The position numbers and the translations under genes were made by a program. Below, piece by piece: positions 79-54,137 of a stretch of DNA of 64,000 nt (position 1 is the first letter of the stretch; every line of letters starts with the position of its first letter). This stretch comes from Elusimicrobiota bacterium (GTDB lineage: Bacteria; Elusimicrobiota; Elusimicrobia; UBA1565; UBA9628), in the NCBI GenBank assembly GCA_031423795.1, contig JANPGH010000001.1, positions 1,656 through 65,655 on the forward strand. Direction: 5' to 3'. The notes under the pieces are model-generated. The model had not been told where the DNA came from. It worked only from the letters and a program-made list of their open reading frames with translations, and did not search any database.

Positions 79-84
79 TATAAT
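79..84 (+). promoter_or_regulatory. -10 box TATAAT 6 nt upstream of ATG 91 (predicted leaderless mRNA)
   Basis: TATAAT at 79-84, then spacer GGTGGC, then ATG at 91. There is no room for a Shine-Dalgarno site. Confidence 0.5.
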
Positions 85-90
85 GGTGGC

Positions 91-741
91 ATGGAAGCCG
101 TGGCGGACCTGAAAGCAGAGCAGCAGGCGACGTTGGCTTCACTACGCCGTCCCTACGGCCTGCTCGCGCGGCTGCTCTTCTCTGGGATGGACTTTGTCTA
201 TGGCCGGAAACGCTCGGTTTCGAAGTTTACCGTCCTGGAAGTGATCGCGCGCGTGCCATACCAGGCGTGGGAACATGTCGCCTACATTGCGATGACGCAC
301 ACCTACACTACGCCGGGCTTCGCGCGCCGCGTGTTCGAGTTCATCCGGGAGTCCCGGGCGCAGCAAGACAACGAGCAATGGCATCTGCTGATCCTGGAGG
401 AAATGCTCCAGAAGGACGGCGTCACGGAGAATTTTCTGCTTTACCGGCTGGCCCCGCAGTTCGTCGCTTTCGCCTACTATCACATCAGCTGGCTGCTCTA
501 TGTGATCGATCCGCGCCACAGCTATGCCCTCAATGCCGACTTTGAAGACCATGCGGAGCACGAATATATGGAGTTCGTGCGCGATATCCCTGCGCTCGAG
601 TCGATCCCGTTTAAAAGCGATTTTGAAGACGACTACGGGCACTTTGCCAGTCGCGCCGATCTATTCCGTCAAATCGGTCTCGACGAGCGTCACCATAAAC
701 TAGAAAGTTTGGCTCGCATCGAGATGCCCCGCTTCTCTTGA
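91..741 (+). CDS. Di-iron alternative oxidase, plastoquinol terminal oxidase (PTOX)-like
   Basis: 216 aa. Four-helix di-iron motifs are present: VLEVIARVPY, NEQWHLLILEE, FEDHAEHEY and LDERHH. This matches the E...ExxH...E...ExxH pattern of AOX/PTOX. Confidence 0.85.
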   Translation: MEAVADLKAEQQATLASLRRPYGLLARLLFSGMDFVYGRKRSVSKFTVLEVIARVPYQAWEHVAYIAMTHTYTTPGFARRVFEFIRESRAQQDNEQWHLLILEEMLQKDGVTENFLLYRLAPQFVAFAYYHISWLLYVIDPRHSYALNADFEDHAEHEYMEFVRDIPALESIPFKSDFEDDYGHFASRADLFRQIGLDERHHKLESLARIEMPRFS

Positions 742-965
742 GCGTAAGGAAGCGAGGCGGGCGGCTGATTCTTAGCGCGAAATAGTGCGCGCGAAGTGAA
801 CGACGATAATAACGAGAGGTAAGCCTTCCACAACCAATGCGCAGGCCAGCAAGCTGCGTGCGCGTTTTTCGTTCGTCATCAGAAACGCCAAGCCGGTGGC
901 GACGGCTGCGGCGTATCCGCGGCGATCAACACTAAGCGTTTAAGGGGCGATAGGGCGCTCATTAC

Positions 966-1718
966 TCAGTCGAAGAGATCATCCCAGATCGGTACGGCCG
1001 AGACAATGAACAGAAGTGCTGCCAGCGGGATGCAGGCGCGGTAACCCGCGTTTTTGAAACCGAGCGCTCCGACGATGCCGCCGAGAACGAAAAGGCCGAT
1101 CATCGAGGCGTGAATACGCAGCTTTTCACGGTTAGCGAGCACTTTGTCGGGTGTTTCGGGGTGGTTCCAATAAAAAAACTTACCCAGCTCGATACCCAAG
1201 TCGGTCGTATTGCCGGTCATATGCGTGGTACGAATTTCCGCATTCGATACCTTCGTGATGATGGCGTTCTGCAGCCCCATCATGTAGCAGAGCAGGACGA
1301 CCGTCGTGGGCACCGCCAGTCCGACGAACAGCTTCAGGTTCGCGCCGAGAAATCCGAAGGCCAGCATGAGCACCGCCTCCAGCATGAGGGGAAGCGCGTA
1401 AAGACTATAAAGTTCGCGGCGGCGTGCCCAGTTGATCAGCACGGCAGAAGTGGCCGCGCCGACAACGAACGAAATCCAGGCGGCGAGTCCAGGGAGGACG
1501 AGATCGAATCGTTTCAATGCCAGATTGTCCGACAGAGACGAGAGAATTCCCGTCATGTGCGAGGTGTACTGGGAGACCGCCAAATAGCCGCCAGCGTTGG
1601 CGGCCCCGGCGACGAAAGCCAGCGTCATCCCTAGATGCTTGTTGGCGTCGCGACTGCGTTCACTCCCAGACAGGAAACGAAGATAGCGAATCATCACCGC
1701 TGATTCTATTACTTCCAT
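966..1718 (-). CDS. YoaK/DUF1275-family inner membrane protein
   Basis: 250 aa and multi-TM. GGYLAVSQYTSHMTG and RTTHMTGNTTDLG resemble DUF1275 signature regions. A GGAG-type SD lies upstream. Confidence 0.7.
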   Translation of the reverse strand: MEVIESAVMIRYLRFLSGSERSRDANKHLGMTLAFVAGAANAGGYLAVSQYTSHMTGILSSLSDNLALKRFDLVLPGLAAWISFVVGAATSAVLINWARRRELYSLYALPLMLEAVLMLAFGFLGANLKLFVGLAVPTTVVLLCYMMGLQNAIITKVSNAEIRTTHMTGNTTDLGIELGKFFYWNHPETPDKVLANREKLRIHASMIGLFVLGGIVGALGFKNAGYRACIPLAALLFIVSAVPIWDDLFD

Positions 1719-1817
1719 CAGCGGCCTTTCTCCGGCTATACTTTGACGCGATGACAGATACTCGTGGCAAGCAGATTTTCCTGCGTGGCGTCCTGCTTTC
1801 TCCCGTGAGGAGATAAG

Positions 1818-3093: not shown

Positions 3094-3122
3094 TTGACAA
3101 AATAATCTGGTCCAATTATAAT
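3094..3122 (+). promoter_or_regulatory. Canonical sigma70-type promoter TTGACA-N17-TATAAT, 7 nt before ATG 3130 (leaderless)
   Basis: TTGACA at 3094-3099, a 17-nt spacer, TATAAT at 3117-3122 and ATG at 3130. Confidence 0.7.
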
Positions 3123-3137
3123 TAACCTAATGGTTAA
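3122..3137. promoter_or_regulatory. Candidate ArsR-family operator: palindrome TTAACC-TAAT-GGTTAA spanning the start codon
   Basis: Perfect 6-bp arms at 3122-3127 and 3132-3137. The palindrome overlaps the end of the -10 box and the ATG of the ArsR-family gene. Confidence 0.4.
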
Positions 3138-3459
3138 GTATAGTCAACACCAGCTCGATCTCTCCTTTGGGGCGCTCTCCCATCCGATTCGCCGTGGTAT
3201 TCTCGCGCGCCTGTCCACCGGTGAGGCCACGGTCGCCGAGCTCGCCAAGCCATTCAAAGTTTCCGCCCCCGCGATCAGCAAACACATGCGTATCTTGGAA
3301 GAGGCTGGACTTCTCTCCCGGCGCAAGGATGGACGCGAGCATCATTGTCGTTTGGAAGCGAAGAAAATGTTGGAAGTCGAACGCTGGATTGAATATCACC
3401 GAAAATTCTGGAGCGATAAATTCGACGCGCTGGAACGGTACTTAAAGGAGAATCCCTGA
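3130..3459 (+). CDS. ArsR/SmtB-family transcriptional regulator
   Basis: 109 aa. Winged-helix HTH: LSHPIRRGILARLSTGEATVAELAKPFKVSAPAISKHMRILEEAGLL. Confidence 0.9.
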   Translation: MVKYSQHQLDLSFGALSHPIRRGILARLSTGEATVAELAKPFKVSAPAISKHMRILEEAGLLSRRKDGREHHCRLEAKKMLEVERWIEYHRKFWSDKFDALERYLKENP

Positions 3460-4735: not shown

Positions 4736-4744
4736 TGATACAAT
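4736..4744 (+). promoter_or_regulatory. Extended -10 TGaTACAAT 7 nt upstream of GTG 4752
   Basis: TGATACAAT at 4736-4744, spacer TTCGTCA, then GTG at 4752 in frame with the PhyH-like ORF. Confidence 0.5.
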
Positions 4745-4751
4745 TTCGTCA

Positions 4752-5615
4752 GTGACTATTTCGAAAGTCCGTTTCAAAAAATCCGATGTAAAACGATTAT
4801 CCCCGAAAACCCTGCGCGCGGTCCGCTCAGGAATGAAACGCGACGGCGCGGTCGTTTTTGAGAACCTGTTTCCGCTCCCGCTTTTGAATCAGTTGCGCCA
4901 GCACGTGACTGCGCGCTTGCGATCCGGCCAGCTGCGCAAGAACGGGATGGTGCGGGATATCGCGGGTCGTTACGCGGCGCTGGTGCCGTTTGAAGGGCCG
5001 TTTTTGAAGCCCGCGTTCTACGCTAACCCGATGCTGCGCGAGATATTAGACGGCTTGCTGGGAGCCGACTGCCGCATTGGAAGCCTGGAAGTCGTCGTGG
5101 CGGTTCCCGGGGCCAACGACCAGCACCAGCACATCGACGGACCGATACGTTTCGACCAGTCCATACGTGGGTCCACACATAGGTACGCGGGCGATCTTGC
5201 GGATTTGCCGCCATACGCGGTGACCCTTTGCGTTCCGCTCTGTGACGTCGACGAAGAAAATGGTCCGACGGCCATATGGCCCGGCTCCCACCGGACCGCG
5301 CTGCGGCCCAGGCCTCCCAGTCTCTCCGAAGTCAACCGCGAATTCCCGGTCGAACATATGGTCGGAAACTTCGGCCGCTCCTTTCTTTTTGATTTCCGAG
5401 TTTTCCACGGCGGTTGCCCCAACCATTCGCGCGAAGAGCGGCCCATTTTGATGTTCGTGTTCACCCGCAGCTGGTACCGGGACCCGAACCTGGCCGATGT
5501 CACGCCGAGCCTCGTCCTCTCTCCTCGCGATTATAAGCGCGTTCCCCAGAGGCTGCGACACCTCTTCATGCTCGCCCCGGCGGCACGTCGCCCGATGTGG
5601 GGGAAGAAACCATGA
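4752..5615 (+). CDS. Phytanoyl-CoA dioxygenase (PhyH)-family Fe(II)/2-oxoglutarate oxygenase
   Basis: About 287 aa. HQHIDGP provides the HxD facial triad and a distal His is present (FHGGCPN). The ATG at 4605 was rejected because it overlaps the upstream gene and lacks the promoter-to-start geometry. Confidence 0.7.
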   Translation: MTISKVRFKKSDVKRLSPKTLRAVRSGMKRDGAVVFENLFPLPLLNQLRQHVTARLRSGQLRKNGMVRDIAGRYAALVPFEGPFLKPAFYANPMLREILDGLLGADCRIGSLEVVVAVPGANDQHQHIDGPIRFDQSIRGSTHRYAGDLADLPPYAVTLCVPLCDVDEENGPTAIWPGSHRTALRPRPPSLSEVNREFPVEHMVGNFGRSFLFDFRVFHGGCPNHSREERPILMFVFTRSWYRDPNLADVTPSLVLSPRDYKRVPQRLRHLFMLAPAARRPMWGKKP

Positions 5616-6149: not shown

Positions 6150-6815
6150 TTAAGGCGCCGAGCCGGCGTAAAGATCGGCGGGACTAGGGAGGAGGACGAT
6201 GTCTCTCCCCTGCTTCACCGCGACCTCGCGGCTGTTGTCAGCCTCGGCTTGCGCTCTCATTTCGACATACCGAAGGGTCAACAGACTGAACCGTTTGTTT
6301 AACGGGCCGTCTAAGACCTTTTTTTGGTCCACAAGCTGGTTGTTTTGGGAGTTGGCGGACGCGTGCTCGGCGTCGGTCCTAGTTTTGAAATTTATCGCAA
6401 TCGCCGCGCTCGCTACTTTTTGCAAATGCTCGGCGTTCAAGGCCAATTGACGCAGGGCGCCGATATATTCTTTGGCTTCCGCCATATCCAGGACGGCCTT
6501 GCCCAGCTTTGTCTTCGCGGCATAATTGCGGTACGGACATCGAGAATCAGTGGCGTCGATCGGGATAAATACATTTTTCGAAAAACAAATACTTAGCAGG
6601 TATGTCGGTGCCTTCGCGGCCTTGTCCGAGGCATCGATGGGTCTGCTAGCATAATCCGCGATTTCGTCGATCGTAGGGTCGAATTTTAAATTAGCGGTGG
6701 GGTTCGCAGAGCGAGCCTCCTTTTTGTGTGCCGCAGGAGCTCTAGTTGGGTTTTTGGGCGCGGCGTGAAGCGGAAGGGAGATCGCTATCATGATGACCGG
6801 GATCAGGGGGGCCAT
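6150..6815 (-). CDS. Secreted hypothetical protein
   Basis: 221 aa from ATG 6815. Signal peptide MAPLIPVIMIAISLPLHA. A TATACT -10 box (6822-6827, minus strand) lies 6 nt upstream. Confidence 0.55.
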   Translation of the reverse strand: MAPLIPVIMIAISLPLHAAPKNPTRAPAAHKKEARSANPTANLKFDPTIDEIADYASRPIDASDKAAKAPTYLLSICFSKNVFIPIDATDSRCPYRNYAAKTKLGKAVLDMAEAKEYIGALRQLALNAEHLQKVASAAIAINFKTRTDAEHASANSQNNQLVDQKKVLDGPLNKRFSLLTLRYVEMRAQAEADNSREVAVKQGRDIVLLPSPADLYAGSAP

Positions 6816-6910
6816 GCGGGAAGTATAAAGTCCGTCTGGAAAAGCGTCAATAGCCATGCGATTAATTTTAACGACTATTTTGGCCCCCCCCAATAAGGGG
6901 GCCTTAATCC

Positions 6911-7354
6911 TCAAAATAAGTAGCACCTGATTGTTGAGTCATTTGGTACGTTTTTATCGTTTGGATCTGGACGGACAATATAAACGGACCAAAAGCGCGC
7001 ACCTGGCGCAGGGGCTTCCGGTTCTACTTTGATGCCGGTCAACTGACGCTTATCAAGAAAGGACGTTCTCGCGGTGGTATAGATCCAAGCCCCCTTGAGC
7101 GGCGGCGGAACGGTTACTGAATCAGGAGAGTTCAGATCACTGAGATTGGTCCGGAATAAAAAAGTCATTTTGATCGGACCTTGCAGCACCCTCTTCTCGA
7201 GTATCCCATCACTATTCTTCTCACTATTCTTAGTGAGCATCTCATTTACGTCCAAAGTGATAGTGCAAACTTCTTTCGGTGGCTCCGCAAGCGCGGGTCG
7301 ACCGAGAATAGACGCAGTGAACACCAGTAGCAGCGCGGGGTATATTTTGTCCAT
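6911..7354 (-). CDS. Secreted hypothetical protein (lower-GC gene)
   Basis: 147 aa. Signal peptide MDKIYPALLLVFTASILGRPALA. A TACAAT -10 box (7361-7366, minus strand) lies 6 nt upstream. Confidence 0.55.
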   Translation of the reverse strand: MDKIYPALLLVFTASILGRPALAEPPKEVCTITLDVNEMLTKNSEKNSDGILEKRVLQGPIKMTFLFRTNLSDLNSPDSVTVPPPLKGAWIYTTARTSFLDKRQLTGIKVEPEAPAPGARFWSVYIVRPDPNDKNVPNDSTIRCYLF

Positions 7355-7425
7355 ACGCTGATTGTAACTCCACGCCGAAGGGGACGGCGAGGGCCCTAAG
7401 TCCTAGGCGACCAGGGCCAAAGGTA

Positions 7426-8520
7426 TCAGTCCAGCCAGTCCCGGTCCTTGAGCTTCTTGGGTAGGTATTTGTTCGTCAGGTACTGGAAATCCTTGTTGGC
7501 CAGCGCGTCAAGCTCGTACTTGAGGCCGGAGGAAAGCATGCGCTTGATCTCAACCTGCCACTCCTTCTTCTGGAACCAAGGATAATTCAGCAATTCCTTG
7601 GCGCGGCCGATGTCCTTGTCGTTGAGTTTGATGCCGACGTTGCGCGGCAAGTCGTACTGTTCGGGGTCCGCGGAGGACAGGCCGACGAATTTCGCCTCAG
7701 GGATGGCCATGCGCTGGCTTTCGAAGGCGAGGTTGATCGAGCCCTGCTTGACGACCGAGTAGATGTAATAGCCCCAAGGGTCGTTGTCGACCAGTACGTA
7801 GACGGGCAGCTTCTTTTCCTCATGAAGGCGTCGCGCCAGGCGGCGTACGCCGCGCGGAGGCTGGCCGTTTCCGGTCAGCAGTATGCAGTTGTACTTTTTC
7901 CAGAACTTGTCTTCGGCCAGGCGGTTCCACTGCGTCCCTTTCTCGATGAGCAGGATGAAATCGGCGGTGCACTTCTTGATCTGTAGGTATTCCTCTTCCA
8001 CGATCGAAGGCACCGAGTATCCGCCCTTACCCAGCTTCGAGCAGTCCACTTTGTCGCCGTCGTCCTCGAAGATCACGGGCCCGATCACGGTGCCGGCGTT
8101 CTCCGCGCGGACGTGGAACTCCTCGCGCAGCGCGGCCAGGCCGACCTCCAAGTCCTCAATGACCGGGTCAGACTCTGACTGGTCGTCGAAGGTGTTCTCA
8201 TGGCTGTCGCCCATCGTGTGCTTCGTGCGGTAGTAAATTTCGCGCAGGCTGGTGGTCAGGTCGGCCTTTTGCAGCTCGGCCAGCGCGTCGGCGACCAACA
8301 TGGTCTGCATGAACTTCTTGGCCATCGACACATTGAAAAATGTCCGGAGCTGCTTGTTCGACCCCATCTCGATGAAGCCCTTCTTCTCGTTGAACTTAAC
8401 GTTCGAGAGCGAGCGCACGGGAATGGAGATCGAGGGATCTTTCTTCTTTTGCGCGGCGGCGATGACCATATCGGCCAGGCCGATCAGCTTCTTCTCAACA
8501 GCTGGGTTTCGTTTGGGCAT
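7426..8520 (-). CDS. top6A: DNA topoisomerase VI subunit A (Spo11-like)
   Basis: 364 aa. Catalytic-Tyr region SLREIYYRTKH. Toprim motifs LLIEKG and VLVDNDPWGYYI. Confidence 0.9.
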   Translation of the reverse strand: MPKRNPAVEKKLIGLADMVIAAAQKKKDPSISIPVRSLSNVKFNEKKGFIEMGSNKQLRTFFNVSMAKKFMQTMLVADALAELQKADLTTSLREIYYRTKHTMGDSHENTFDDQSESDPVIEDLEVGLAALREEFHVRAENAGTVIGPVIFEDDGDKVDCSKLGKGGYSVPSIVEEEYLQIKKCTADFILLIEKGTQWNRLAEDKFWKKYNCILLTGNGQPPRGVRRLARRLHEEKKLPVYVLVDNDPWGYYIYSVVKQGSINLAFESQRMAIPEAKFVGLSSADPEQYDLPRNVGIKLNDKDIGRAKELLNYPWFQKKEWQVEIKRMLSSGLKYELDALANKDFQYLTNKYLPKKLKDRDWLD

Positions 8521-12192: not shown

Positions 12193-12272
12193 CGAAGGAG
12201 TATAGACGCCTTTCAAGCGGAGGCGATAGGGTCGTCAGGCCTGTTTTGCGCAGGCCGGAGGACCTAGGGCGG

Positions 12273-13115: not shown

Positions 13116-13121
13116 TCGTTG

Positions 13122-13165
13122 ATTCTACCGCTTCCGGACTGTGGGCTCAATGCACGTGATAGAAT
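13122..13165. promoter_or_regulatory. Back-to-back divergent -10 boxes for nadC (minus) and the 2OG-Fe oxygenase gene (plus)
   Basis: Minus strand: TAGAAT (13122-13127) 6 nt before GTG 13115. Plus strand: TGaTAGAAT (13157-13165) 5 nt before GTG 13171. Confidence 0.5.
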
Positions 13166-13170
13166 GAAGC

Positions 13171-15752: not shown

Positions 15753-15782
15753 GGAAAAATTATCCGGAGGCGACGCCGATGC

Positions 15783-19040: not shown

Positions 19041-19046
19041 GGGTTC

Positions 19047-19075
19047 ATTATGGAACTGAAGGCCCGTGCTGTCAA
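19047..19075 (-). promoter_or_regulatory. Canonical promoter TTGACA-N17-CATAAT, 6 nt before ATG 19040 (leaderless)
   Basis: Read on the minus strand: TTGACA (19075-19070), a 17-nt spacer, CATAAT (19052-19047), GAACCC, then ATG. Confidence 0.65.
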
Positions 19076-21483: not shown

Positions 21484-21492
21484 TCGCCCCGC

Positions 21493-33872: not shown

Positions 33873-33882
33873 CCCCGTCGTA

Positions 33883-39499: not shown

Positions 39500-39510
39500 A
39501 CTCCCCTTCG

Positions 39511-45278: not shown

Positions 45279-45317
45279 AATTAATAATTCACATGCTTTG
45301 TCTATAATGGGCCGATC

Positions 45318-46676
45318 ATGAGCCTGCGCGCCCTGACGTCCATTCTCGTTCTTGCGGCGACGCCGGCTTGGGCAGTATTCGATGACGCCCCTTTCGGCGC
45401 GCGGGACGCCGCAATGGGGGGAGCGTTCGTAGCTGTTCACGACGACGTGGCCGCGCTCGCTTATAATCCCGCCGCCCTCGGCCATGCTCCCTCAATCGAA
45501 GCGGAAGCTTCCTATTTGCGCGATTTTCACTTTCCCGCCGGCAGTCTCGACCGTGACATCACTCGCGGCGCGGTCGCCATTCCGGTGCGCCAAGAGATTT
45601 TTAACGGCGCGTTCGGTTTCGACGTACGCTATGACCGCCGCTCGCAAATCGCCAAGGACCGCCAAATCGGTGTCTTTTACGGAACCCGGGGACTGCTTGA
45701 AACTGAGGGTGGAGGCCTCGATTTCGGCGGCGGGCTCAAGTGCCTGCAAAGCCGAATAGAATCTGGCGGGAGTACGAAGACGAAGCCCGCGTTGGACTTG
45801 GGAACTTTGTGGCGCGTTGGAGACAAAAGGTCGCTGGGCGCCTCATTGCTTAACTTTGGCGGTGCGAAATTTAGCGGGCCGGGATATTCCGACCGAGCTC
45901 CGCTGATCCTGAAAATTGGCGCGGCTGAATCGGTGCACGGCTCGCTTCTGGCCGTCGATGCCTCGATGCGCGAGGGTTCCTCGGGACTGAGCCGTTCGGT
46001 GACACTGGCCGCCGGCTTCGAGCGTTGGTGGTCGACCGCCCGCAATGGCTCCTACGCGATTCGCAGCGGCCTGTCGCTTGGCGATTTGTCGCGTACCTGG
46101 CATTGGGGATTAGGCTGGAAGCTGGGCGGCGGCCGCGCGGACTATGCGATGACCGTCCCGCTGTCTGGCAACAAGCAGTTCGGCCACGCGCTGACGATTT
46201 CGATTCGGTTCGGTCGGTCGGATCCGGAAGCGGAATATGAGCGGCTACTCGAAGGCGAGATGAACGATCGTCACCGACTGGGAGAATCCCTGGCGGCGAG
46301 CGCCTTGCGCCAGCAGGAACTATCCGAAGAAATCGGGCGTTTGCGCGATGAGATCGCCAAATTGCACCACGCTCTCTCCGAGAAGCGCGCGTCGGCAGAC
46401 GAGGCGCGGCGCAAAATATCGGAACTTGAAGCGCGCCATAAAAAAGCCGTCGCGTCTTTCGACAAGCTGCAGGCGGAGCACGCGCGCAACGCGGCGAAAA
46501 CAAAGTCGGAGTTATTCCATGAAGAATGGGCCGCCTATCAACGCGCCAAGCTCGACGGCGCGCCCGACGCCGCCCTTCTCCAGCGCCTTCAGCGCCTGAT
46601 GACCGAGTACATGGACGCCGGCGTCGACTTGGGCGACGCCAACCAGGAATTGCGCCGTCTCCAGCAAGAGCACTGA
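45318..46676 (+). CDS. PorV-like outer-membrane barrel fused to a C-terminal coiled-coil extension
   Basis: 452 aa with a signal peptide. The N-terminal motif GARDAAMGGAFVAVHDDVAALAYNPAAL parallels the PorV-like gene at 52917. The last ~150 aa are heptad-like and Glu/Arg/Leu-rich. TATAAT lies at 45303-45308. Confidence 0.55.
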   Translation: MSLRALTSILVLAATPAWAVFDDAPFGARDAAMGGAFVAVHDDVAALAYNPAALGHAPSIEAEASYLRDFHFPAGSLDRDITRGAVAIPVRQEIFNGAFGFDVRYDRRSQIAKDRQIGVFYGTRGLLETEGGGLDFGGGLKCLQSRIESGGSTKTKPALDLGTLWRVGDKRSLGASLLNFGGAKFSGPGYSDRAPLILKIGAAESVHGSLLAVDASMREGSSGLSRSVTLAAGFERWWSTARNGSYAIRSGLSLGDLSRTWHWGLGWKLGGGRADYAMTVPLSGNKQFGHALTISIRFGRSDPEAEYERLLEGEMNDRHRLGESLAASALRQQELSEEIGRLRDEIAKLHHALSEKRASADEARRKISELEARHKKAVASFDKLQAEHARNAAKTKSELFHEEWAAYQRAKLDGAPDAALLQRLQRLMTEYMDAGVDLGDANQELRRLQQEH

Positions 46677-46817
46677 TCCGATTACGGCACTTATCCGCAA
46701 ATATTTCTCGCGATCGACCCCCGGCACTTTTAAAAGTTTTCTGTGAATAACCGCGCGGAAAATCATAAATCTCCCCCCCATTGAGGAAATGATGTTTTCC
46801 TGTTACACTGAGAGAGC

Positions 46818-47021
46818 GTGGTTCATAAAATAAGCATTATTCGACGCGGACAGTTTCCCGACTCGAGCGCGGACAACCTTGCCTACTGGCTTTCGAGACC
46901 TGCAGGCGAGCGGATTGCCGCCGTTGAAGAACTGCGTCGCAACACTTATCGCCTCGTTCACGGGTGTGTGCTCCCACAAATGTTGAGGAGCGCGAAAGTA
47001 CTTAAGCGCGGCGATGAGTAA
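46818..47021 (+). CDS. Small hypothetical protein, first gene of a two-gene cassette
   Basis: 67 aa with a GTG start. An extended -10 TGtTACACT (46801-46809) ends 8 nt upstream. The gene overlaps the next gene by 8 nt. Confidence 0.4.
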   Translation: MVHKISIIRRGQFPDSSADNLAYWLSRPAGERIAAVEELRRNTYRLVHGCVLPQMLRSAKVLKRGDE

Positions 47022-47487
47022 CGCCCCCAAGGAGCAGCAGTCCGAATTCGAGCAGCTCATCGCCGCGTTCAATTCACGCGATGTCGAGTACGCGATCATC
47101 GGGGGCTACGCGGTCGCCCATCATGGCCATGTCCGCAACACTCAGGATCTCGATATATTTGTGCGCGCGACGGCGAAAAATGCGAAACGGATTGTCCTGG
47201 CCTTGCGCGACGTGGGGTTTCGCGAATCCGAAATAACCGAAGAAGCTTTTACGCATGACAACGGCGTTCGCCTCGGCGCCGTTCCCACCCAAATCGATGT
47301 CATCGCCTATTTGCCCGGCGTCGATCAGGACGGAGTGTGGTCAAGACGGGAAAACGGCAAATTTGGCGTGGAGACAGCCTATTTCATTTCCCGCGAGGAT
47401 CTTCTCGATAATAAGCGTTTCGTCGCTCGTCCTCAGGATCTGGCTGACGCGAAGACTCTCGAATCTATCAAATCAAAGAAGACGTGA
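47014..47487 (+). CDS. Nucleotidyltransferase-fold protein (minimal NTase-like)
   Basis: 157 aa. VEYAIIGGYAVAHHGHVRNTQDLDIFV resembles the G(G/S)...D.D NTase core. Confidence 0.55.
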   Translation: MSNAPKEQQSEFEQLIAAFNSRDVEYAIIGGYAVAHHGHVRNTQDLDIFVRATAKNAKRIVLALRDVGFRESEITEEAFTHDNGVRLGAVPTQIDVIAYLPGVDQDGVWSRRENGKFGVETAYFISREDLLDNKRFVARPQDLADAKTLESIKSKKT

Positions 47488-47550
47488 TCGGGACAGGCGC
47501 TTAACAATTCTGTTAACTTATTTCCAAGCGCCGGCTTTATAATAGACGCT

Positions 47551-49395
47551 GTGTCGGATCACTCCCCCGAGGACTTAAGCCGCGAGATCGACCGCCTGTG
47601 GGCGCGGGTTGGTTCCGCGATGCCCGAGGCGACAAGCGTCGCGGCGATCTCGGCGACCACGGCGACGAGCAGCGTCGTCGGTGCTGAGGTCGCGTGGGAG
47701 ACCGTGGGACTGCTCAAGCGTCAGATGCGCCAAAGCGAAAGCTCTTGGCGCCAAACCATGGACGCTCGCGACGAGGCGATGCGCGTGTTGCGCGCGCGGC
47801 TAGAATCCGCCGAGAACGAATTGTCCGGGCTTCGCGCCCACGCCGACAACGAGGACCAGCGTATTTTGGTCGACACACTCGATGCTCGCGAAAAAGTCGA
47901 AACCGCGCAGAAAGCCCTGAATTTGGCTCAGGCGCGGTATAACGATGAGCGCCGGATTCTCGAGGAGGCTATGCAAAGCCTCAGGGAGCGCCTGGCCGCC
48001 GAAAATTCCCGCTCACGCTCGACCGAAGCGCGTTGGCAGAGCCGGGAGCAGCAGTATGTGATCGATCTTCAAGAGCTCCAAAACATTGCCGCGCGGCGCG
48101 AGAAGGAGGCGGCGCAGGCCCAAAGTGCTGCACGCGCGCTGCAAAACAATCTCGCTGAGGCCAAGAATGCGCTCGAGAAGACGCTGGCTGAGCTTTTGCT
48201 TGAGCGCAAGGAACGCGAGCGCGCTCACGGCGAGCGCGAGGCCGCGCAGAAGAACGTCGCTGAGCTGCGCACGCATGTCGACGAACTTTCGAAGATTTGG
48301 GAAGAGGAGCGCGCGCAATGGAAAGAGCTCTGGGACCGTGAGCGCGCGTCCTGGGAGTCGCGGCGCGCGGAACTTGCCAAATGGGAAGAGGATCTGCGTC
48401 GCGAGCGCGAGGCGTGGCACGCGGAGCTTAAAGTCAAAGAAGCCGCGCACCTGGCCATTACCGACGATTTGTCCGGGAAAATCCGCGAGACCGCCCAAAA
48501 CGCTGAGAAAATGACGGAATTGATCGAGACTTTCGATCGCAAAACGACCGATGACACGCACCGCGCCGCCGAAAGTTTGGTCGCGATGGCCGCTAATGAG
48601 CGGTCGCGCCAGCGTAGAGTACGGCGCTGGGCGACCTTCGTTGTGACAGTGGTCATCGCTGGTGCTGCTTTCATACCGGTTCAGCGCGCCGCGCAAACTT
48701 GGCGTTACACCGCTGAGTCCGGCACGCCGGCGCCGGTACCCAATCCGTCGGCAATGGGCTTCGACGGAGATTTGTTATGGATCGCCGATTGGGGCGGCCG
48801 GCTCGTCGGGGTTGATCCGGCCGATCCGCGCCGCGTGCTGCGCCAAGCCAATCCCGCTCCCGCCGGTCCCTACCACCCGACCGCGATCGCTGCCGGCGGT
48901 GGCCTGCTGTGGACATTAGACGCGGCACAGCCCCGCCTGTTGCGTCATTCCGCGGGCAATCCCGAAAAAATATTATCGGTGCGGCCGTCGCCGGGTGCGG
49001 CTCCAACCGCGCTGGCCTATGACGGCGAAACCGTGTGGTCCTATGACGCGGTCGATCATGCGTTGACGCGACATGGCGGCGACGATGCGCCCGCGCAGAA
49101 ATTTGCCTTCCCCGACGACGCCGTCCCCAACGCGATGGCTTGGTCGAGGGGACGCCTGTGGGTCCACGACGCGAAGGGCCACCGAATATTAGTCTATTCA
49201 GTCGACGGCGCTCGCCTGTGCCGCGTCGATATGGCTCCTGCCCCGGAAGCCGGAGCGCTCGGCATGGTCGTCGCCGACGGCGCCTCCGCCCGCGAGCGCC
49301 GCGTGCGTTTCCTGCTCGGTCCGACCGGCGCGCGCCTGGCCGCAGAAGTCGTCCGCTACCGTATTCGCCGCTGGCTACCTTTTGCCCATTATTAA
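47551..49395 (+). CDS. Bitopic protein: N-terminal coiled coil, one TM, C-terminal beta-propeller-like repeats
   Basis: 614 aa with a GTG start 7 nt after TATAAT (47538-47543). TM WATFVVTVVIAGAAFIPV. The C-terminal part has repeated G..LW..D blades. Confidence 0.6.
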   Translation: MSDHSPEDLSREIDRLWARVGSAMPEATSVAAISATTATSSVVGAEVAWETVGLLKRQMRQSESSWRQTMDARDEAMRVLRARLESAENELSGLRAHADNEDQRILVDTLDAREKVETAQKALNLAQARYNDERRILEEAMQSLRERLAAENSRSRSTEARWQSREQQYVIDLQELQNIAARREKEAAQAQSAARALQNNLAEAKNALEKTLAELLLERKERERAHGEREAAQKNVAELRTHVDELSKIWEEERAQWKELWDRERASWESRRAELAKWEEDLRREREAWHAELKVKEAAHLAITDDLSGKIRETAQNAEKMTELIETFDRKTTDDTHRAAESLVAMAANERSRQRRVRRWATFVVTVVIAGAAFIPVQRAAQTWRYTAESGTPAPVPNPSAMGFDGDLLWIADWGGRLVGVDPADPRRVLRQANPAPAGPYHPTAIAAGGGLLWTLDAAQPRLLRHSAGNPEKILSVRPSPGAAPTALAYDGETVWSYDAVDHALTRHGGDDAPAQKFAFPDDAVPNAMAWSRGRLWVHDAKGHRILVYSVDGARLCRVDMAPAPEAGALGMVVADGASARERRVRFLLGPTGARLAAEVVRYRIRRWLPFAHY

Positions 49396-49461
49396 CATTC
49401 TCTTAATCCTCCTGAAACGTACGTAGTGTATAATCCGGTTCGCACAAAAAATGACAACAAC

Positions 49462-52400
49462 ATGTTTCGCCACCACCGCAGTCTGAAGTCCGCCTTCGTC
49501 CTCGTCGCTCTCGCGATGATTTCCTCCGTTTTTGCCACCGCAGGATCCGTACAAGTGGCGGTCAATACGGCTTTCATCGTCGATAGCAGCGGACTCGGGG
49601 CGACCTGCGCCGTTACTGCGGGTAGCGGTGGAACGGCCTATTATGATTGCTTGGCTCCCGACGTCGGCGCCAATGTCCCGACGCCGCAAAATCATTTCAT
49701 CGCCAACGATCCAGAAATTCAATTTGCTGATAATGGCCTCAGTCGCTGCAACCTCGCTGGGGCAGCAGCTAATCCAAATATCCCAGGCACAATCGGCCGC
49801 AATGTCTGCAACTCACAGCTTCTTCTCTGCGCGCAGGTCAGCGTCAACCAGGATGCTGCCCCAGCGTCTTTGGCGTTGGATAAAGTCTCTTTTGAAGTTT
49901 TTCGCTACATCGATGGGTCAAATCCCCTGGATCCTGCTTCCACCCCACCCTTGCGCACCATGTTTATCGATTCCGCCGGATCCGTGTCCGGCCCCGGTTT
50001 TCTTCCTTCCTCGGGGCACGCTTATTGCGTGATGTGGGATGGATCCCAGTCAATCCAGGGTTCGTTAGGAAAAATAAATGGTCAGTACGGCTTTCGCGTG
50101 GCGGTGGAAACCAACCAGCAAGGCGCCAGCGGTCAAATCGTCATTACCGCCGTCAGGGCCTATCCTTCCGGTGGCGTGACATACGACGGTTCGGGCGGCC
50201 CGCCCTACACGGCCGTCGCGCCGAAAGCCATTACGGTCAACGTCAACGACGTTCACGTCGTACGGTCGACCCCCACCATCGTCGGCCAGATCACGGGCGT
50301 TGCGGCGGAGCCCTACAACTTTACTTATCGCCTGTCGAAAGGCGCGACCATGTACCTCAATGTCAGCCAGTCGAATCCACCCTATTCATTGATCCGAACC
50401 GTCGTTCCCGCTCTGCAGAGGACCGGCGAGGGCGACCTCGGAACTCAGAACGCGGTTCCTATCGTCAACGGTGATTCCTGGGACGGTCGCGATTCAAACG
50501 GGAATTTCATGCCCGCTGGCAACTATTTGGCGTCATTCCAGTCTAACTCGATGACGCTGTACTCGAATACTCTTGTACAGGGAGACCTGTCGGCGCCGAC
50601 CACGGTTCAAATCGGCCTTGATCCTCTGCAAATCACCGATATACGAGTCCAACCGCTGCTGGGAGGAGCGACGTCGCTCGCCGTGCTCTCCTATATGTTG
50701 ACCGAGCCGGCGACGGTCTATATAGAAGTATATTCGCCGGGAACGCAGTTCTGCAATGACTCGAACAATATAGCGGCTTTAAACGACCTGCCTACCTCCG
50801 CTATTCCGGGAGTCAATTATTTGAGCGCCAGCTCCGGCGGATGTATTCCGGGCGGAGGAGCTGTGGCACCCGTTCAGCCGTTGCGCTCGATTGTCCAGCA
50901 GCAGACATTCCGCACTCCTATCCTTTCCTATTGGGATGGTCGGGATTCCTCCGGTAATTTGGTCGGTGACGGTGATTATGTGTTCGTGATTTACGCGACA
51001 CTCCCTTCACAGCGGGGAGCCATCTTCGACGGTAACGCCGCAGATCGCAGAATTTGGACCACACAAGGAAAAATAGGGTTTATTTCCGTTTTGCGCGGAC
51101 TTGTGGGGCTGACTCAGGTGACGCCCACGACCACGGTCATCGGTTCCAGTCCGGCAATCTCCGGGCTCAATCCCTTCTCGTTCCGCTATCAACTGTCGCG
51201 CGACGCGACCGTCTCCTTGAAGATTTTCGACGCGACCGGAAGCATTCTGATAAAAACGATCGTGGATCGAGAGACACGCCCCGGTTTCTTCAATAACGTC
51301 GAGCCATGGGTTGATGGAACCGGCAATGACGGCCGCGCTCTCTCCTCGGGCACTTATCTCGTTCAGCTGACTGCCTACGACCCGGCCTTCCCTGCGAGAA
51401 TCTCGACGACTACCGCCCTTTTCCCGATCAACATGTACCGCATCACCGACGTATCGATCGTTCCACTGCTCGCGGGCGCATCAGACCAGGTTGTGCTCAG
51501 CTATCAGCTGTCGCAGCCGATGTTCGTTGCCTGGAACGTGTATCCGCCGGGTTCGATCGTGGTCAACAGCACCGGTGCGTGGCCTCCGTGCGTCGGCCAG
51601 TCCCCGCCCAGTGCCTGCACAAGCGCATCCGTCGTCAATCCAAGCGGGATACCCGTCAGTCCCGTGGTCACCTTCCACGGAATGCGCCCCGGCCGCCTGC
51701 GCATCTCCGAATTCTGGGACGGTCGGGATACAAACGGACTGTTCGTCCCAGACGGAAATTACGTTTTCACCTTGGTCGCGCAGACCACGACGACGCCGCA
51801 GTACTACACGTCCGACCATATTTTTGGAACCATCACCGTCGCGCGTGGCTCAATCATCTTCCTGAACTTCAGCGTGACTCCCGACGTTCCCGTCCTTTTC
51901 AACTCGAGCAACACGATCACGCTGCATCCTTACACGATCAGCTACACGCTTTCGCGCCAATCCTCGGTCACCATTCAAATTTTGAACACGACCCTTCCCG
52001 CGGCCGTCGTGCGCACACTGGTATCGGGCTCGGTGCGCGAGGGATCGATCCTGCAAACCGATATTTGGGATGGCCGCGACGATAGGGGTAATTTCTTGCC
52101 CGCAGGCTTCTACCTGGTGCGGGCGGTGGCCTCCGACGTGGCGTCAGCGCTGACTTCAGGGACGACGGCGCAGGCAGCCATCTCCTACGATCCACTGCGC
52201 ATTTACGATCTTGCGGTGACGCCGATCACCTTTGGAGGTGGTGGCGCGATAATCGCGTATCAAGTCTCCGAGTCGATGAAGGTATCGATCAAAATCTACA
52301 AACCAGGGACCACCTTCGACTCGGCGGGAACGCCATCTCAACCCGACTCCGTATCCTTGGTTCGCCGCATCGTCGGAATTCGGCCGGGCCGCACGCTGAT

Positions 52401-52920
52401 CCAGGACGTATGGGACGGCCGCGACTTCCGAATGGCCCTGGTTCCGGACGGCGTTTATCGCTTCAAGATCGTCGGCTCGACCGATCCGACCGCCATCGAC
52501 AGCATTACCGGCAATATTTTAAATCCGGCGGTGTTGGCCACAGACCGCCCCATCGACGATATCCCCGTCGCAACCGACGGTGCGGCTGGGGATGCCGGCA
52601 CAAATTTTGATCACGATACTTTCGTCTATCCCAATCCAGTCACCGGGAATTCGGCGGTCGTCAAGATTTTCATGCCGTATACCGGCCGAGCGATTTTCAA
52701 TCTTTACACCATCGCCGGACAATTGGTTTACAGCCGAACTATGGAGGGCATGTCCGCCAATCACCTCTGTTCAGGAGACTGCAATTCGTTCACCTGGAAC
52801 AAGGTCAACGCCAGCGGACGCACCCTTGCTCGTGGTTTGTATTACGCCGTCATCCGTGTCGAGGAAACTCAAGGCAGCGGGACCGTTTATCAAACGGTTA
52901 AGAAGGTGTTGATCCCGTGA
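49462..52920 (+). CDS. Large surface protein: about 7 FlgD-Ig-like repeats plus a T9SS type A C-terminal sorting domain
   Basis: About 1152 aa from ATG 49462, with a signal peptide. The recurrent motif is WDGRD..G..(V/M)P.G.Y. The C-terminal VYPNPVTGNSAVVKI...LYTIAGQLV...GLYYAVIRV...KKVLIP fits the Por_Secre_tail pattern. Confidence 0.8.
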   Translation: MFRHHRSLKSAFVLVALAMISSVFATAGSVQVAVNTAFIVDSSGLGATCAVTAGSGGTAYYDCLAPDVGANVPTPQNHFIANDPEIQFADNGLSRCNLAGAAANPNIPGTIGRNVCNSQLLLCAQVSVNQDAAPASLALDKVSFEVFRYIDGSNPLDPASTPPLRTMFIDSAGSVSGPGFLPSSGHAYCVMWDGSQSIQGSLGKINGQYGFRVAVETNQQGASGQIVITAVRAYPSGGVTYDGSGGPPYTAVAPKAITVNVNDVHVVRSTPTIVGQITGVAAEPYNFTYRLSKGATMYLNVSQSNPPYSLIRTVVPALQRTGEGDLGTQNAVPIVNGDSWDGRDSNGNFMPAGNYLASFQSNSMTLYSNTLVQGDLSAPTTVQIGLDPLQITDIRVQPLLGGATSLAVLSYMLTEPATVYIEVYSPGTQFCNDSNNIAALNDLPTSAIPGVNYLSASSGGCIPGGGAVAPVQPLRSIVQQQTFRTPILSYWDGRDSSGNLVGDGDYVFVIYATLPSQRGAIFDGNAADRRIWTTQGKIGFISVLRGLVGLTQVTPTTTVIGSSPAISGLNPFSFRYQLSRDATVSLKIFDATGSILIKTIVDRETRPGFFNNVEPWVDGTGNDGRALSSGTYLVQLTAYDPAFPARISTTTALFPINMYRITDVSIVPLLAGASDQVVLSYQLSQPMFVAWNVYPPGSIVVNSTGAWPPCVGQSPPSACTSASVVNPSGIPVSPVVTFHGMRPGRLRISEFWDGRDTNGLFVPDGNYVFTLVAQTTTTPQYYTSDHIFGTITVARGSIIFLNFSVTPDVPVLFNSSNTITLHPYTISYTLSRQSSVTIQILNTTLPAAVVRTLVSGSVREGSILQTDIWDGRDDRGNFLPAGFYLVRAVASDVASALTSGTTAQAAISYDPLRIYDLAVTPITFGGGGAIIAYQVSESMKVSIKIYKPGTTFDSAGTPSQPDSVSLVRRIVGIRPGRTLIQDVWDGRDFRMALVPDGVYRFKIVGSTDPTAIDSITGNILNPAVLATDRPIDDIPVATDGAAGDAGTNFDHDTFVYPNPVTGNSAVVKIFMPYTGRAIFNLYTIAGQLVYSRTMEGMSANHLCSGDCNSFTWNKVNASGRTLARGLYYAVIRVEETQGSGTVYQTVKKVLIP

Positions 52921-53900
52921 GTAAATTGATCAGATTTTTCTTGGCGATCAACGTCCTCCTAGCGACCACTTCGTCCGCGGCCTGGGCGATTGATTCCGCA
53001 GCGGGCACCAGTGCTGCCCAATTTATGAAGATCGGCCAAGGATCTGCTCGCGCGATGGCTCTGGGAGGAGCTTACGTCGCATTGGCCGAAGGCTCGGACG
53101 CGATGTCCTGGAATCCGGCCGGTCTGGCCGCGACCCAGCAGCGGGAATTCGCCTTCTCATATCTGCGCCATCTTCAAACCCTCGATTCGCCATTATATCT
53201 GGGATACGCGCATCCGATGGGTCGCACGACCTGGGGCGGGAATTTCGGTTACATGTCCGACAGCTTGACGGGCACCGACGTCCGTGACACTTCTGGCTAT
53301 ATCCAGCAGGGTACGAACGTTACTGTTCGTGATTTTTACGGAGCGATCGGCTTGGCGAGGTCGTTCATGTATGAAAAACTCTTTTTGGGCGCGGCGATCC
53401 GGGAAGTTCATGAAGAGATCGCGGGCTCCAAACATGACACGTTTGCGGGGGACTTCGGCGTCATTTTCAAACCGACGAACATACTATCCCTGGGTTTCGC
53501 CCTCCAGAATTTCGGCGCCAGCGATGCCAATATCGCGCGAGTCCTGCGCGGCGGGGCGGCGCTGCGGCTCAACGATTTCGTGACATTCTCCGGTGAATTG
53601 AATAAAGCGACCGATGACGGCACGCACATCGCGCTCGGCGGCGAATTCCAGTTGCCGGAAGAATATCTAGACGTGGGACAAATCACCATGCGCATCGGAT
53701 ATAAGAGCGGCCAAGGCTACGGCCAGAGCTTTTCTGGCGTGCTTAAATCTCTGAAGTTGGACCAGAGCAGCGGATTGTCTTTTGGACTAGGCGTGTACAC
53801 GTCGCAGGCGTTCGGTTACGGAGTCGCGATCGATTACGCGTTCGTGCCATACGGGGCGCTGGGGACGGTCGACCAGATTTCATTCAAGTTGAAATTTTAA
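52917..53900 (+). CDS. PorV/PorQ-family outer-membrane beta-barrel
   Basis: 327 aa with a signal peptide. Motif GSARAMALGGAYVALAEGSDAMSWNPAGLA. GTGA overlap with the upstream cargo gene. Confidence 0.7.
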   Translation: MSKLIRFFLAINVLLATTSSAAWAIDSAAGTSAAQFMKIGQGSARAMALGGAYVALAEGSDAMSWNPAGLAATQQREFAFSYLRHLQTLDSPLYLGYAHPMGRTTWGGNFGYMSDSLTGTDVRDTSGYIQQGTNVTVRDFYGAIGLARSFMYEKLFLGAAIREVHEEIAGSKHDTFAGDFGVIFKPTNILSLGFALQNFGASDANIARVLRGGAALRLNDFVTFSGELNKATDDGTHIALGGEFQLPEEYLDVGQITMRIGYKSGQGYGQSFSGVLKSLKLDQSSGLSFGLGVYTSQAFGYGVAIDYAFVPYGALGTVDQISFKLKF

Positions 53901-53921
53901 TGGTTTATTAATGGCAATGTA

Positions 53922-53950
53922 TTGACACTGATATGGACGGCTGTTAAACT
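53922..53950 (+). promoter_or_regulatory. Promoter TTGACA-N17-TAAACT, 7 nt before the first pilin ATG (leaderless)
   Basis: TTGACA at 53922-53927, TAAACT at 53945-53950 and ATG at 53958. Confidence 0.6.
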
Positions 53951-53957
53951 GACGGCG

Positions 53958-54137
53958 ATGCGAAAGCGGTTTATACCTCGGACATTATTAGGGAAGAAGG
54001 GCCAGACGGTCGTGGAGTACCTTTTGACGACGCTGACGCTCGTGACATTGTTCGCGGGGATGTACGGATTCTTGCAGGGGCAGCTTAAGACCTTGTTTCG
54101 CATCGCCGGGATTAAAATTTTGACGCCGTATTACTAA
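53958..54137 (+). CDS. flp: Flp-type pilin 1
   Basis: 59 aa. The class III signal is KKG/QTVVEYLL, matching G/xxxxEY, and a hydrophobic helix follows. Confidence 0.7.
   Translation: MRKRFIPRTLLGKKGQTVVEYLLTTLTLVTLFAGMYGFLQGQLKTLFRIAGIKILTPYY

Follow-up and report, generated by a model that had tools for sequence, protein, structure and literature searches.

A class of "TA-led genes," in which a TANNNT motif lies approximately 10 bp upstream of the start codon, was described by Zheng et al. (2011; PMC3160421). In the GeneMarkS-2 scheme, genomes of "group C" have a Pribnow box 6 to 8 nt from the starts of first genes and ribosome binding sites (RBSs) for the rest (Lomsadze et al. 2018; PMC6028130), and this group was predicted for 1028 of 4769 bacteria, mainly Actinobacteria (90% of which belong to it) and Deinococcus-Thermus (97%; PMC6028130). 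In Deinococcus, a "-10-motif adjacent to ORFs" (open reading frames) was found 6 to 7 bp upstream, with GGAG used for other genes (Zhong et al. 2025; PMC12340547). As summarized in PMC6028130, 167 of the 262 genes with a mapped transcription start site (TSS) were affected in D. deserti (de Groot et al. 2014). For mycobacteria, the share of leaderless transcripts is given as between about a quarter and 40% (Cortes 2013 and Shell 2015, as cited in PMC6028130 and PMC5397173). Experiments in both Deinococcus and Mycobacterium have tied the -10-adjacent signature to mRNAs without a leader (PMC12340547, PMC6028130, PMC3160421). Here, we examined a 64-kb stretch of DNA with a GC content of approximately 59% (referred to below as the window), in which 18 genes that come first in their transcription units had been proposed to carry a TAnnnT-type hexamer, that is, a candidate promoter -10 element, right beside the start codon. 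Our analysis confirmed that this arrangement is real, and the leaderless interpretation of it was supported.

The window shared several features with Deinococcus-Thermus: a TANNNT motif approximately 6 to 7 bp upstream of the start codon, a second class of genes with a GGAG RBS, a large share of affected transcription units, and retention of the arrangement in orthologues. In both cases, the motif was also useful for correcting start codons. Unlike in Deinococcus, the middle positions of the hexamers in the window often matched the consensus (TATAAT, TATACT, TAGAAT), and a TTGACA -35 element or a TGn extension of the -10 element was common. A further difference was that the window belongs to an uncultured sediment bacterium whose nearest labelled relatives are metagenome-assembled genomes (MAGs) of Planctomycetota rather than of Deinococcota. 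As in group C and the TA-led genes, the -10 motif was found at first genes and Shine-Dalgarno (SD) sites at internal or leadered genes, but the share of units involved was about 65% in this small sample of 64 kb, compared to the 25 to 50% typical of group C.

Like the leaderless transcripts of mycobacteria, the genes in question start with ATG or GTG, with GTG being frequent (6 of 19 cases here), and have no SD site; the 5' ends in the window are predicted ones, and mycobacterial promoters, unlike those described here, usually have no recognizable -35 element. The absence of SD sites is also shared with archaeal group D, which differs in having a TATA box approximately 22 to 26 nt upstream and a different polymerase, and with group B of the Bacteroidota, which differs in having an A-rich motif before all genes and leadered mRNAs. 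Neither group fits the window data. In the literature collection searched, no account of this architecture turned up for Planctomycetota or for lineages related to anammox bacteria, apart from a hint in a single genome. The architecture was thus already known; what is new here is the lineage in which it is found, and no new mechanism is proposed.

Hexamers and start codons of first genes

Genes in the window were taken from a curated table backed by Pfam and NCBIfam profiles. This table was used because a composition-based gene caller missed several genuine genes, among them arsR, a 2OG-Fe dioxygenase gene, and two secreted hypotheticals (6150-7354). All 18 hexamer/start codon pairs listed in the initial annotation were present at their coordinates. 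The description of the hexamers as TAnnnT type held for 16 of them; the remaining two, GATAAT at 15759-15764 and CATAAT at 19047-19052, lack the first T, and each matches TATAAT at five of six positions. Overall, 14 of the 18 hexamers match TATAAT at five or more of the six positions. The distance between hexamer and start codon was mostly 6 to 7 nt, as had been reported (13 of 18 pairs), and the full range was 5 to 10 nt: one gap of 5 nt, nine of 6 nt, four of 7 nt, two of 8 nt, one of 9 nt, and one of 10 nt. The three perfect TTGACA elements at a spacing of 17 nt (3094, 19075-19070, and 53922) were also found again. Two counts had to be raised, from four to five for extended TG motifs (4739, 13160, 21139, 46804, and 53945) and from five to six for GTG starts (4752, 13171, 21493, 46818, 47551, and 13115). 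When a 19th case identified here is included, the start codons comprise 13 ATG, 6 GTG, and no TTG codons. We found no SD motif downstream of the hexamers; the initial annotation had noted that none of the genes has room for one.

The hexamer was present at 18 of 28 first genes and, when a loose pattern was allowed, at 2 of 29 internal genes (Fisher P = 5e-6). A near-consensus hexamer at a gap of 4 to 10 nt was found before none of the 29 internal genes. The view that internal genes rely on SD sites or short overlaps held up well: AAGGAG-type motifs were common, 14 of the 29 internal genes overlap the upstream stop codon by 1 or 4 nt, and AAGGAGG-type SD sites are used elsewhere in the window. 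Both insertion sequence (IS) transposase genes had also been described as having GGAG(G) SD sites and longer leaders, and this was the case. Specifically, the ATG of the IS110-family gene at 27785 has GGAGG approximately 11 nt upstream. In the IS5-like gene, TAGAAT is followed by 25 nt and then by ATG 32645, with GGAG located 6 nt before the ATG; as judged from this spacing, it is a normal leadered gene.

Statistical tests of the spacing

The window contains 15 exact TATAAT sequences on its two strands, and 6 of these sit 6 to 9 nt before an ATG or GTG with which an ORF longer than 100 amino acids begins. We used a mechanical test that was blind to the -10 hexamers: the longest-ORF start was taken for each gene (n = 57), and TAnnnT was scored at gaps of 5 to 8 nt. 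With ATG, GTG, and TTG allowed as start codons, 10 of the 57 starts had TAnnnT in this position (binomial P = 4e-6), and with ATG and GTG only, 13 of 57 did (binomial P = 5e-9). The position of TAnnnT relative to starts, which the initial annotation had proposed as a check and which we followed within the window, peaked at gaps of 5 to 8 nt, compared to a background in which 2.8% of all ATG and GTG codons in the window have TAnnnT at those gaps. In the same upstream regions, TAnnnT occurred approximately 0.5 times per gap at gaps of 11 to 54 nt versus 3 to 7 times at gaps of 5 to 8 nt.

A start-agnostic test asked for a strong -10 hexamer followed, at gap g, by an ATG or GTG (RTG) that opens at least 100 codons. 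The resulting distribution peaked at g = 6 to 7, with 17 cases observed at gaps of 5 to 8 nt versus 3.7 expected (P = 4e-7). As a control, 74 loci of other phyla (1.25 Mb) gave a flat distribution, with 59 cases observed versus 61 expected. Hence, the spacing between TAnnnT and start codons exceeds chance by tests that are independent of the earlier choice of starts.

Promoter features of the hexamers

We scanned 60 kb with a consensus for two-hexamer promoters, and eight sites scored at least 10/12. Six of these eight top sites end 6 to 9 nt before start codons of the proposed set. The mean -35 score upstream of the 18 hexamers was 3.8 versus 2.7 in controls, and the -35 match reached at least 4/6 for 10 of the 18 hexamers, compared to 14% of the controls (bootstrap P < 5e-5). 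In 3 of 18 cases, TTGACA occurred without a mismatch at 17 nt, compared to 0.07% expected per site. A good -35 element is missing from three of the five promoters with TGn (4739, 13160, and 21139), which is expected of sigma-70 promoters. These results support the prediction that the hexamers behave as -10 elements of sigma-70 (RpoD-type) promoters.

The nadC gene and the 2OG-Fe dioxygenase gene are divergent, and their starts are only 55 bp apart, each with a TAGAAT located 5 to 6 nt from its GTG. The 55-bp intergenic region therefore leaves no room for two 5' untranslated regions (UTRs).

Start codon assignments

In 11 of the 18 cases, the start codon is the first one after the upstream in-frame stop codon. 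ArsR and NadC align within 8 to 12 residues of the profile N terminus. Public gene calls contain the exact protein in 14 of 18 cases, and the Logan calls agree for 11. The four starts at 21151, 28159, 46818, and 53958 are not those of the public callers, and two further starts differ between these callers. The start at 53958 was rescued by orthologue conservation, and we consider 21151 and 46818 to be the least secure starts.

Conservation in related loci

The relatives that we examined were related metagenome contigs (loci numbered with the prefix L) with orthologues of 34 to 77% identity. Genes of the putative leaderless class kept TAnnnT at a gap of 4 to 10 nt in 39 of 44 orthologue starts (22 of 23 for hyp614, the conserved hypothetical gene with GTG 47551; 9 of 9 for the Flp pilin; 4 of 6 for the PorV-like protein; and 4 of 6 for aspartate kinase, AspK). 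In contrast, other window genes with orthologues showed the geometry at only 3 of 62 starts; TsaD (0 of 9), the TMEM260-like protein (0 of 10), CpaB (0 of 9), and the second pilin (0 of 9) are examples without it.

A metagenome scan with the protein encoded at 47551 identified 24 hyp614 loci with 34 to 66% identity, 23 of which included the N terminus. In 22 of these 23 loci, TAnnnT (mostly TATACT) was located 6 to 7 nt before the homologous GTG or ATG, with four at 10 nt, and the starts consisted of 19 GTG and 3 ATG codons. The spacer sequence was not conserved in these loci, and protein conservation began at the homologous start codon. Similarly, TACACT was found 7 to 8 nt before the same ATG in all nine Flp pilin orthologues. 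In the case of AspK, the orthologues in L001, L002, L004, and L006 had TAnnnT 7 to 10 nt before the same MIVMKFGG start, and L001, L004, and L006 also had a TTGAnT/TTGCTT-type -35 box 17 to 18 nt upstream. The orthologue in L003 had a comparable AT-rich hexamer that is not TAnnnT, and AspK orthologues of Sorangium and other phyla had SD motifs instead.

In L084, L088, and L091, the homologous start of the FtsX_ECD-like gene is an ATG preceded by TAGAAT at a gap of 7 nt; in L096, the same TAGAAT arrangement preceded a 250-amino-acid ORF that was assigned to the FtsX_ECD-like family by size and motif. In the case of the PorV-like gene, approximately 10 loci had TATAAT and a gap of 7 nt before the ATG of an ORF of approximately 451 to 455 amino acids, and N-terminal homology was confirmed in four of them. 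Protein conservation began at the RTG beside the hexamer in the hyp614, Flp pilin, PorV-like, and AspK orthologues. Comparison of these loci shows the geometry to be under purifying selection across deep divergence, and we regard conservation in orthologues as the strongest independent support for the proposed arrangement.

Proposed mechanism and alternative explanations

RNA polymerase normally begins transcription approximately 7 nt (range, 6 to 9 nt) past the final T of the -10 box, preferably at a purine. Given a gap of 6 to 7 nt and this preference, the A or G of the start codon is therefore the predicted +1 position. In the model that we propose, the hexamers would be -10 elements of housekeeping sigma-70 promoters, and transcription would start on, or within approximately 3 nt of, the A or G of the ATG or GTG. 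In about two-thirds of the window's transcription units (19 of approximately 29), the first cistron would thus be made as a leaderless or near-leaderless mRNA, and the ribosome and initiator tRNA would recognize its 5'-terminal AUG or GUG directly, without an SD interaction. Downstream cistrons would use SD sites or be coupled to the preceding cistron where stop and start codons overlap by 1 or 4 nt. A smaller share of first genes, to which both transposase genes belong, would have an ordinary promoter, a 5' UTR of approximately 20 to 40 nt, and an SD site. The promoter elements, the occurrence at first genes, the start codons, and the orthologues all agree at the sequence level with the leaderless reading put forward in the initial annotation, in which the transcription start itself is a prediction. 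We consider it very probable that the -10 boxes beside the start codons give leaderless or near-leaderless first cistrons.

One alternative is that the hexamers are A/U-rich translation signals of the unstructured, S1-binding, group B-like type, which act independently of SD sites in ordinary 5' UTRs, with the promoters lying further upstream. In several phyla, non-SD genes are known to have A/U-rich sequence at positions -20 to -10, and PMC5397173 placed the one Planctomycetes genome that it analyzed with low-SD taxa. However, the motif in the window has the pattern T-A-n-n-n-T and is often a perfect TATAAT, TTGACA at 17 nt or TGn lies upstream of it, and the 55-bp divergent region has no room for promoters upstream. 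Moreover, group B motifs precede all genes (PMC6028130), whereas none of the 29 internal cistrons has a near-consensus hexamer, and the organism uses AAGGAGG-type SD sites elsewhere. An RBS of the non-SD, group B type was rejected on the grounds that internal genes have SD sites rather than near-consensus hexamers, and we view this explanation as extremely unlikely.

It could also be argued that the promoters are real but that the starts were chosen wrongly, with the true starts lying downstream or upstream and the mRNAs being leadered in the ordinary way. The geometry did help to pick three of the starts (4752, 6815, and 12192), 4 of the 18 proteins are absent from the public calls and two differ between callers, and several of the genes are hypotheticals without family support. 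Against this, 11 of the 18 starts are the first after a stop codon, the enrichment survives when starts are assigned mechanically, and AspK, TrpRS, ArsR, and NadC align to full-length profiles from their first residues. In addition, no SD motif lies downstream of the hexamers, and the RTG adjoining the hexamer is where protein conservation sets in among the orthologues of hyp614, the Flp pilin, the PorV-like protein, and AspK. Wholesale misannotation of starts was rejected on the basis of the mechanical-start enrichment, the profiles, and the orthologues, and such an artefact seems very unlikely to account for the data. As for a chance association of TAnnnT with starts in AT-richer intergenic DNA, the pattern is admittedly loose, and the 2.8% background shows that it occurs at gaps of 5 to 8 nt without selection of starts. 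The binomial P values (4e-6 to 5e-9), the local peak relative to gaps of 11 to 54 nt, the flat control from other phyla, the three perfect -35 boxes versus 0.07% expected per site, and the conserved geometry in orthologues nonetheless refute this explanation, and its probability is close to nil.

Several points weigh against the leaderless interpretation or limit its reach. Both the coincidence of transcription starts with start codons and the translation of such mRNAs are presumed from the promoter geometry and by analogy with Deinococcus and Mycobacterium. In a search of RNA runs, none matched the window or L093, and three small SOLiD groundwater metatranscriptomes that came up for L088 gave zero aligned reads. 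Where the gap is 8 to 10 nt (21493, 46818, 45318, 33883, and 39511), a leader of 1 to 3 nt is more likely than a strictly leaderless mRNA. The hexamers at 15759 and 19047 are without the canonical first T, and those at 21139 and 46804 match TATAAT at only four of six positions and have no good -35 element. The NCBI caller itself models leaderless starts, and its agreement with our starts is not fully independent evidence. In the relatives' flanking DNA, a longest-ORF enrichment test gave no enrichment (7 of 129; P = 0.33), likely because longest ORFs over-extend at a GC content of 65 to 70%; a start-agnostic version gave enrichment before families were collapsed, and after collapse, the enrichment was marginal (11 versus 6.4 families; P = 0.06). 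A "genome-wide" or "lineage-wide" extent of the arrangement rests on 64 kb and five orthologous gene families.

If the geometry holds more widely in the lineage, start codons and operon boundaries could be called from the -10 box. In the window, the geometry settles or corrects start assignments, those at 6815, 28159, and 53958 among them, and reveals putative internal promoters at 21493 and 39511. Gene callers that rely on SD sites are expected to mis-start a noticeable share of genes, as suggested by the 4 of 18 starts absent from public calls and the two others that differ. The phylogenetic range of promoter-adjacent leaderless starts would also be extended to an uncultured group that is probably affiliated with Planctomycetota. 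We would give even chances to the broader proposal that leaderless initiation serves about two-thirds of the transcription units of an uncultured groundwater and sediment lineage with this affiliation. Such a share would be an extreme like that of Deinococcus, but beyond the two phyla known for it; the geometry was kept in orthologues of down to 34% identity.

Individual promoter-start pairs

The three putative promoters with a perfect -35 element precede arsR, a hypothetical gene, and an Flp pilin gene. In the case of the arsR-family regulator (3130-3459), TTGACA at 3094, a 17-nt spacer, TATAAT at 3117-3122, and a gap of 7 nt lead to ATG 3130 (whole element, 3094-3132, plus strand). This promoter matches the consensus at 12/12 positions, and position 5 of the NCBIfam profile aligns to residue 13 of ArsR. 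The arsR start codon lies at the centre of a perfect 6-4-6 palindrome, TTAACC-TAAT-GGTTAA (3122-3137). This palindrome probably serves as an autoregulatory operator, and its position over the predicted +1 is the one expected for an autorepressor. The hypothetical gene 18624-19040, which heads uvrB, has TTGACA at 19075-19070, a 17-nt spacer, CATAAT at 19052-19047, and a gap of 6 nt before ATG 19040 (19038-19075, minus strand; 11/12 match); this ATG is the first start codon of the ORF, and NCBI and Logan both call exactly this protein.

The Flp pilin gene has TTGACA at 53922, a 17-nt spacer, TGtTAAACT (hexamer, 53945-53950), and a gap of 7 nt before ATG 53958 (53922-53960, plus strand). Its product carries the G/QTVVEY processing motif, and the start codon of the longer ORF, TTG 53922, coincides with the -35 box itself. 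The gene heads a Tad/Flp pilus locus (53958-63656, plus strand) that encodes two Flp pilins, CpaB, a secretin, a CpaE-CpaF fusion, TadB, TadC, and a TPR protein. The promoter-adjacent start is found at the first pilin only, and this is kept in nine of nine related loci. The second Flp pilin is at 54139-54381, and its true start is likely to be ATG 54169, which lies behind GGAG.

Partial -35 matches at five of the other promoters are as follows. The secreted hypothetical 6150-6815 is preceded by TTGACG at 6850-6845, a 17-nt spacer, TATACT at 6827-6822, and a gap of 6 nt to ATG 6815 (6813-6850, minus strand; 10/12 match). A signal-peptide-like N terminus begins at Met 6815, and the protein is 221 amino acids long in the Logan calls versus 258 amino acids in the NCBI calls. 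For nadC (12273-13115), TTGAGC at 13150-13145, a 17-nt spacer, TAGAAT at 13127-13122, and a gap of 6 nt precede GTG 13115 (13113-13150, minus strand), which is the first start codon of the ORF; position 2 of the TIGR00078 profile aligns to NadC residue 13. The CpXC protein gene (28159-28803) has TTGGCT at 28123, an 18-nt spacer, TATAAT at 28147-28152, and a gap of 6 nt to ATG 28159 (28123-28161, plus strand; 10/12 match). This start was chosen by the coding-potential maximum, the CpXC domain runs from residue 10, and the exact protein is absent from public calls.

The trpS gene, which heads a long operon, has TTGGAA at 33843, an 18-nt spacer, TAGAAT at 33867-33872, and a gap of 10 nt to ATG 33883 (33843-33885, plus strand). 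Because of this 10-nt gap, a leader of approximately 1 to 3 nt is implied. Residues 4 to 5 of TrpRS align to position 3 of TIGR00233, and the same 357-amino-acid protein is in the Logan calls. In the intergenic region between the YARHG gene and trpS, TTAACA-18-TATCAT (33861-33832, minus strand; 10/12) faces the end of the YARHG gene in antisense orientation, and this site could be the source of an antisense transcript or a chance match. The PorV-like outer-membrane protein gene (45318-46676) has TTAATA at 45281, a 16-nt spacer, TATAAT at 45303-45308, and a gap of 9 nt to ATG 45318 (45281-45320, plus strand); the match is 10/12, and an identical protein is found in both the NCBI and the Logan calls.

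Four further hexamers have the extended TG motif. The PhyH-family dioxygenase gene (4752-5615) has TGaTACAAT (hexamer, 4739-4744) at a gap of 7 nt from GTG 4752 (4739-4754, plus strand). This GTG was chosen by the coding-potential maximum; NCBI has the same 287-amino-acid protein, and Logan has one of 260 amino acids. The 2OG-Fe dioxygenase gene (13171-13884), divergent from nadC, has TGaTAGAAT (hexamer, 13160-13165) at a gap of 5 nt from GTG 13171 (13160-13173, plus strand), the first start codon of the ORF, and both NCBI and Logan have exactly this protein. At the membrane protein gene 21151-21483, TGtTACCAT (hexamer, 21139-21144) precedes ATG 21151 at a gap of 6 nt (21139-21153, plus strand). 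This hexamer is the weakest of the -10 elements (4/6), the start is uncertain by up to three codons, and the exact protein is absent from public calls. The next gene, a hypothetical (21493-23121), has TATAAT at 21479-21484 and a gap of 8 nt before GTG 21493 (21479-21495, plus strand), which is the first start codon of an ORF whose exact protein is in the NCBI and Logan calls. The TATAAT includes the TAA stop codon of the upstream gene (21481-21483), such that the units abut without true intergenic DNA.

This tight packing, with an upstream stop codon embedded in the next -10 box, was seen at 21479-21484 and again at 39497-39502. In the latter case, which is the 19th pair and is new here, TAGACT (39497-39502) includes the TAG stop codon of the upstream gene and lies 8 nt before ATG 39511 (39497-39513, plus strand) of the FtsX_ECD-like gene (39511-40251), inside an apparent single long operon (33883-45278). 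The least secure gene is a 67-amino-acid ORF that overlaps the nucleotidyltransferase gene 47014-47487; it is preceded by TGtTACACT (hexamer, 46804-46809) at a gap of 8 nt from GTG 46818 (46804-46820, plus strand), has no family match, and is absent from public calls.

The remaining pairs consist of a hexamer and a start codon. TATAAT at 79-84 lies 6 nt before ATG 91 (79-93, plus strand) of the AOX-like gene 91-741; the ATG is the first start codon of the ORF, and the NCBI and Logan gene calls contain an identical protein. TACAAT at 7366-7361 lies 6 nt before ATG 7354 (7352-7366, minus strand) of the hypothetical 6911-7354, which also begins at the first start codon of its ORF and whose exact protein is in the NCBI calls. 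GATAAT at 15764-15759 (5/6, not TAnnnT) lies 6 nt before ATG 15752 (15750-15764, minus strand) of the aspartate kinase gene (14421-15752), and residue 1 of the protein aligns to positions 1 to 4 of aspartate-kinase profiles. TATACT at 12204-12199 lies 6 nt before ATG 12192 (12190-12204, minus strand) of the hypothetical 10498-12192, for which the same 564-amino-acid protein is in the NCBI calls. This gene heads an operon for topoisomerase VI, and the genes for subunit B (8524-10485) and the Spo11-like subunit A (7426-8520) adjoin each other downstream of it on the minus strand. Topoisomerase VI is typical of archaea and plants and is found in only some bacteria.

For hyp614 (47551-49395), TATAAT at 47538-47543 lies 7 nt before GTG 47551 (47538-47553, plus strand). 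A palindrome similar to that at arsR, TTAACA-ATTC-TGTTAA, is located at 47501-47516, which is 35 to 50 nt upstream of this GTG, and a related element of approximately 18 nt (GTAACAATTCCGTCAAC / GTTCATATTTCCGAAAAG) is kept at the same position in the hyp614 orthologue loci L083-L105. The palindrome-type element has two matches in the window versus 0.09 expected by chance.

Lineage, gene content, and other candidate promoters

The window was matched in a single DNA run, a freshwater-sediment metagenome, and proteins of the window appear in NCBI and Logan gene calls from a 66.8-kb contig. The gene content includes arsR, nadC, aspartate kinase, uvrB, topoisomerase VI A/B, and two IS transposases, as well as the long trpS-scpA-scpB-glgA...tsaD operon, the PorV-like gene, and the Tad/Flp pilus locus. 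A tRNA scan and an Rfam scan of the 64-kb window gave nothing relevant. Among the aspartokinase matches listed (GTDB species representatives), the closest was a MAG labelled Elusimicrobiota, with 71% identity, and the matches listed also included several MAGs labelled Planctomycetota or Planctomycetales, with 56 to 59% identity. These relatives include nzgw515, a groundwater MAG for which the designation "Brocadiae clade II" is given. Based on these labelled relatives, the lineage is probably affiliated with Planctomycetota, although this is not proven. A PorV/PorQ-family outer-membrane protein is encoded at 45318-46676 (plus strand), and 49462-52920 (plus strand) codes for a large protein matching FlgD_ig, CHU_C, and Por_Secre_tail, which suggests that the two products are components or cargo of a type-IX-secretion-like system. 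Such genes are unusual for a planctomycete, and the phylum assignment therefore stays uncertain.

The gene for the large protein (1152 amino acids; FlgD_ig and secretion tail) has an extended -10 element, TGTATAAT (49427-49434, plus strand), located 27 nt before ATG 49462. This first gene has an A-rich leader without an SD site and looks leadered but SD independent. Upstream of the HEAT-repeat gene, TTGACA-17-TACACT (3053-3025, minus strand) is followed by 6 nt and then by GTG GAC ACC GTG TAG, a mini-ORF of four codons. The mini-ORF site lies 42 nt upstream of ATG 2982 of the HEAT-repeat gene, which is without an SD motif, and the promoter-like site at 3053-3025 could serve either a leaderless upstream mini-ORF or a plain leadered transcript.

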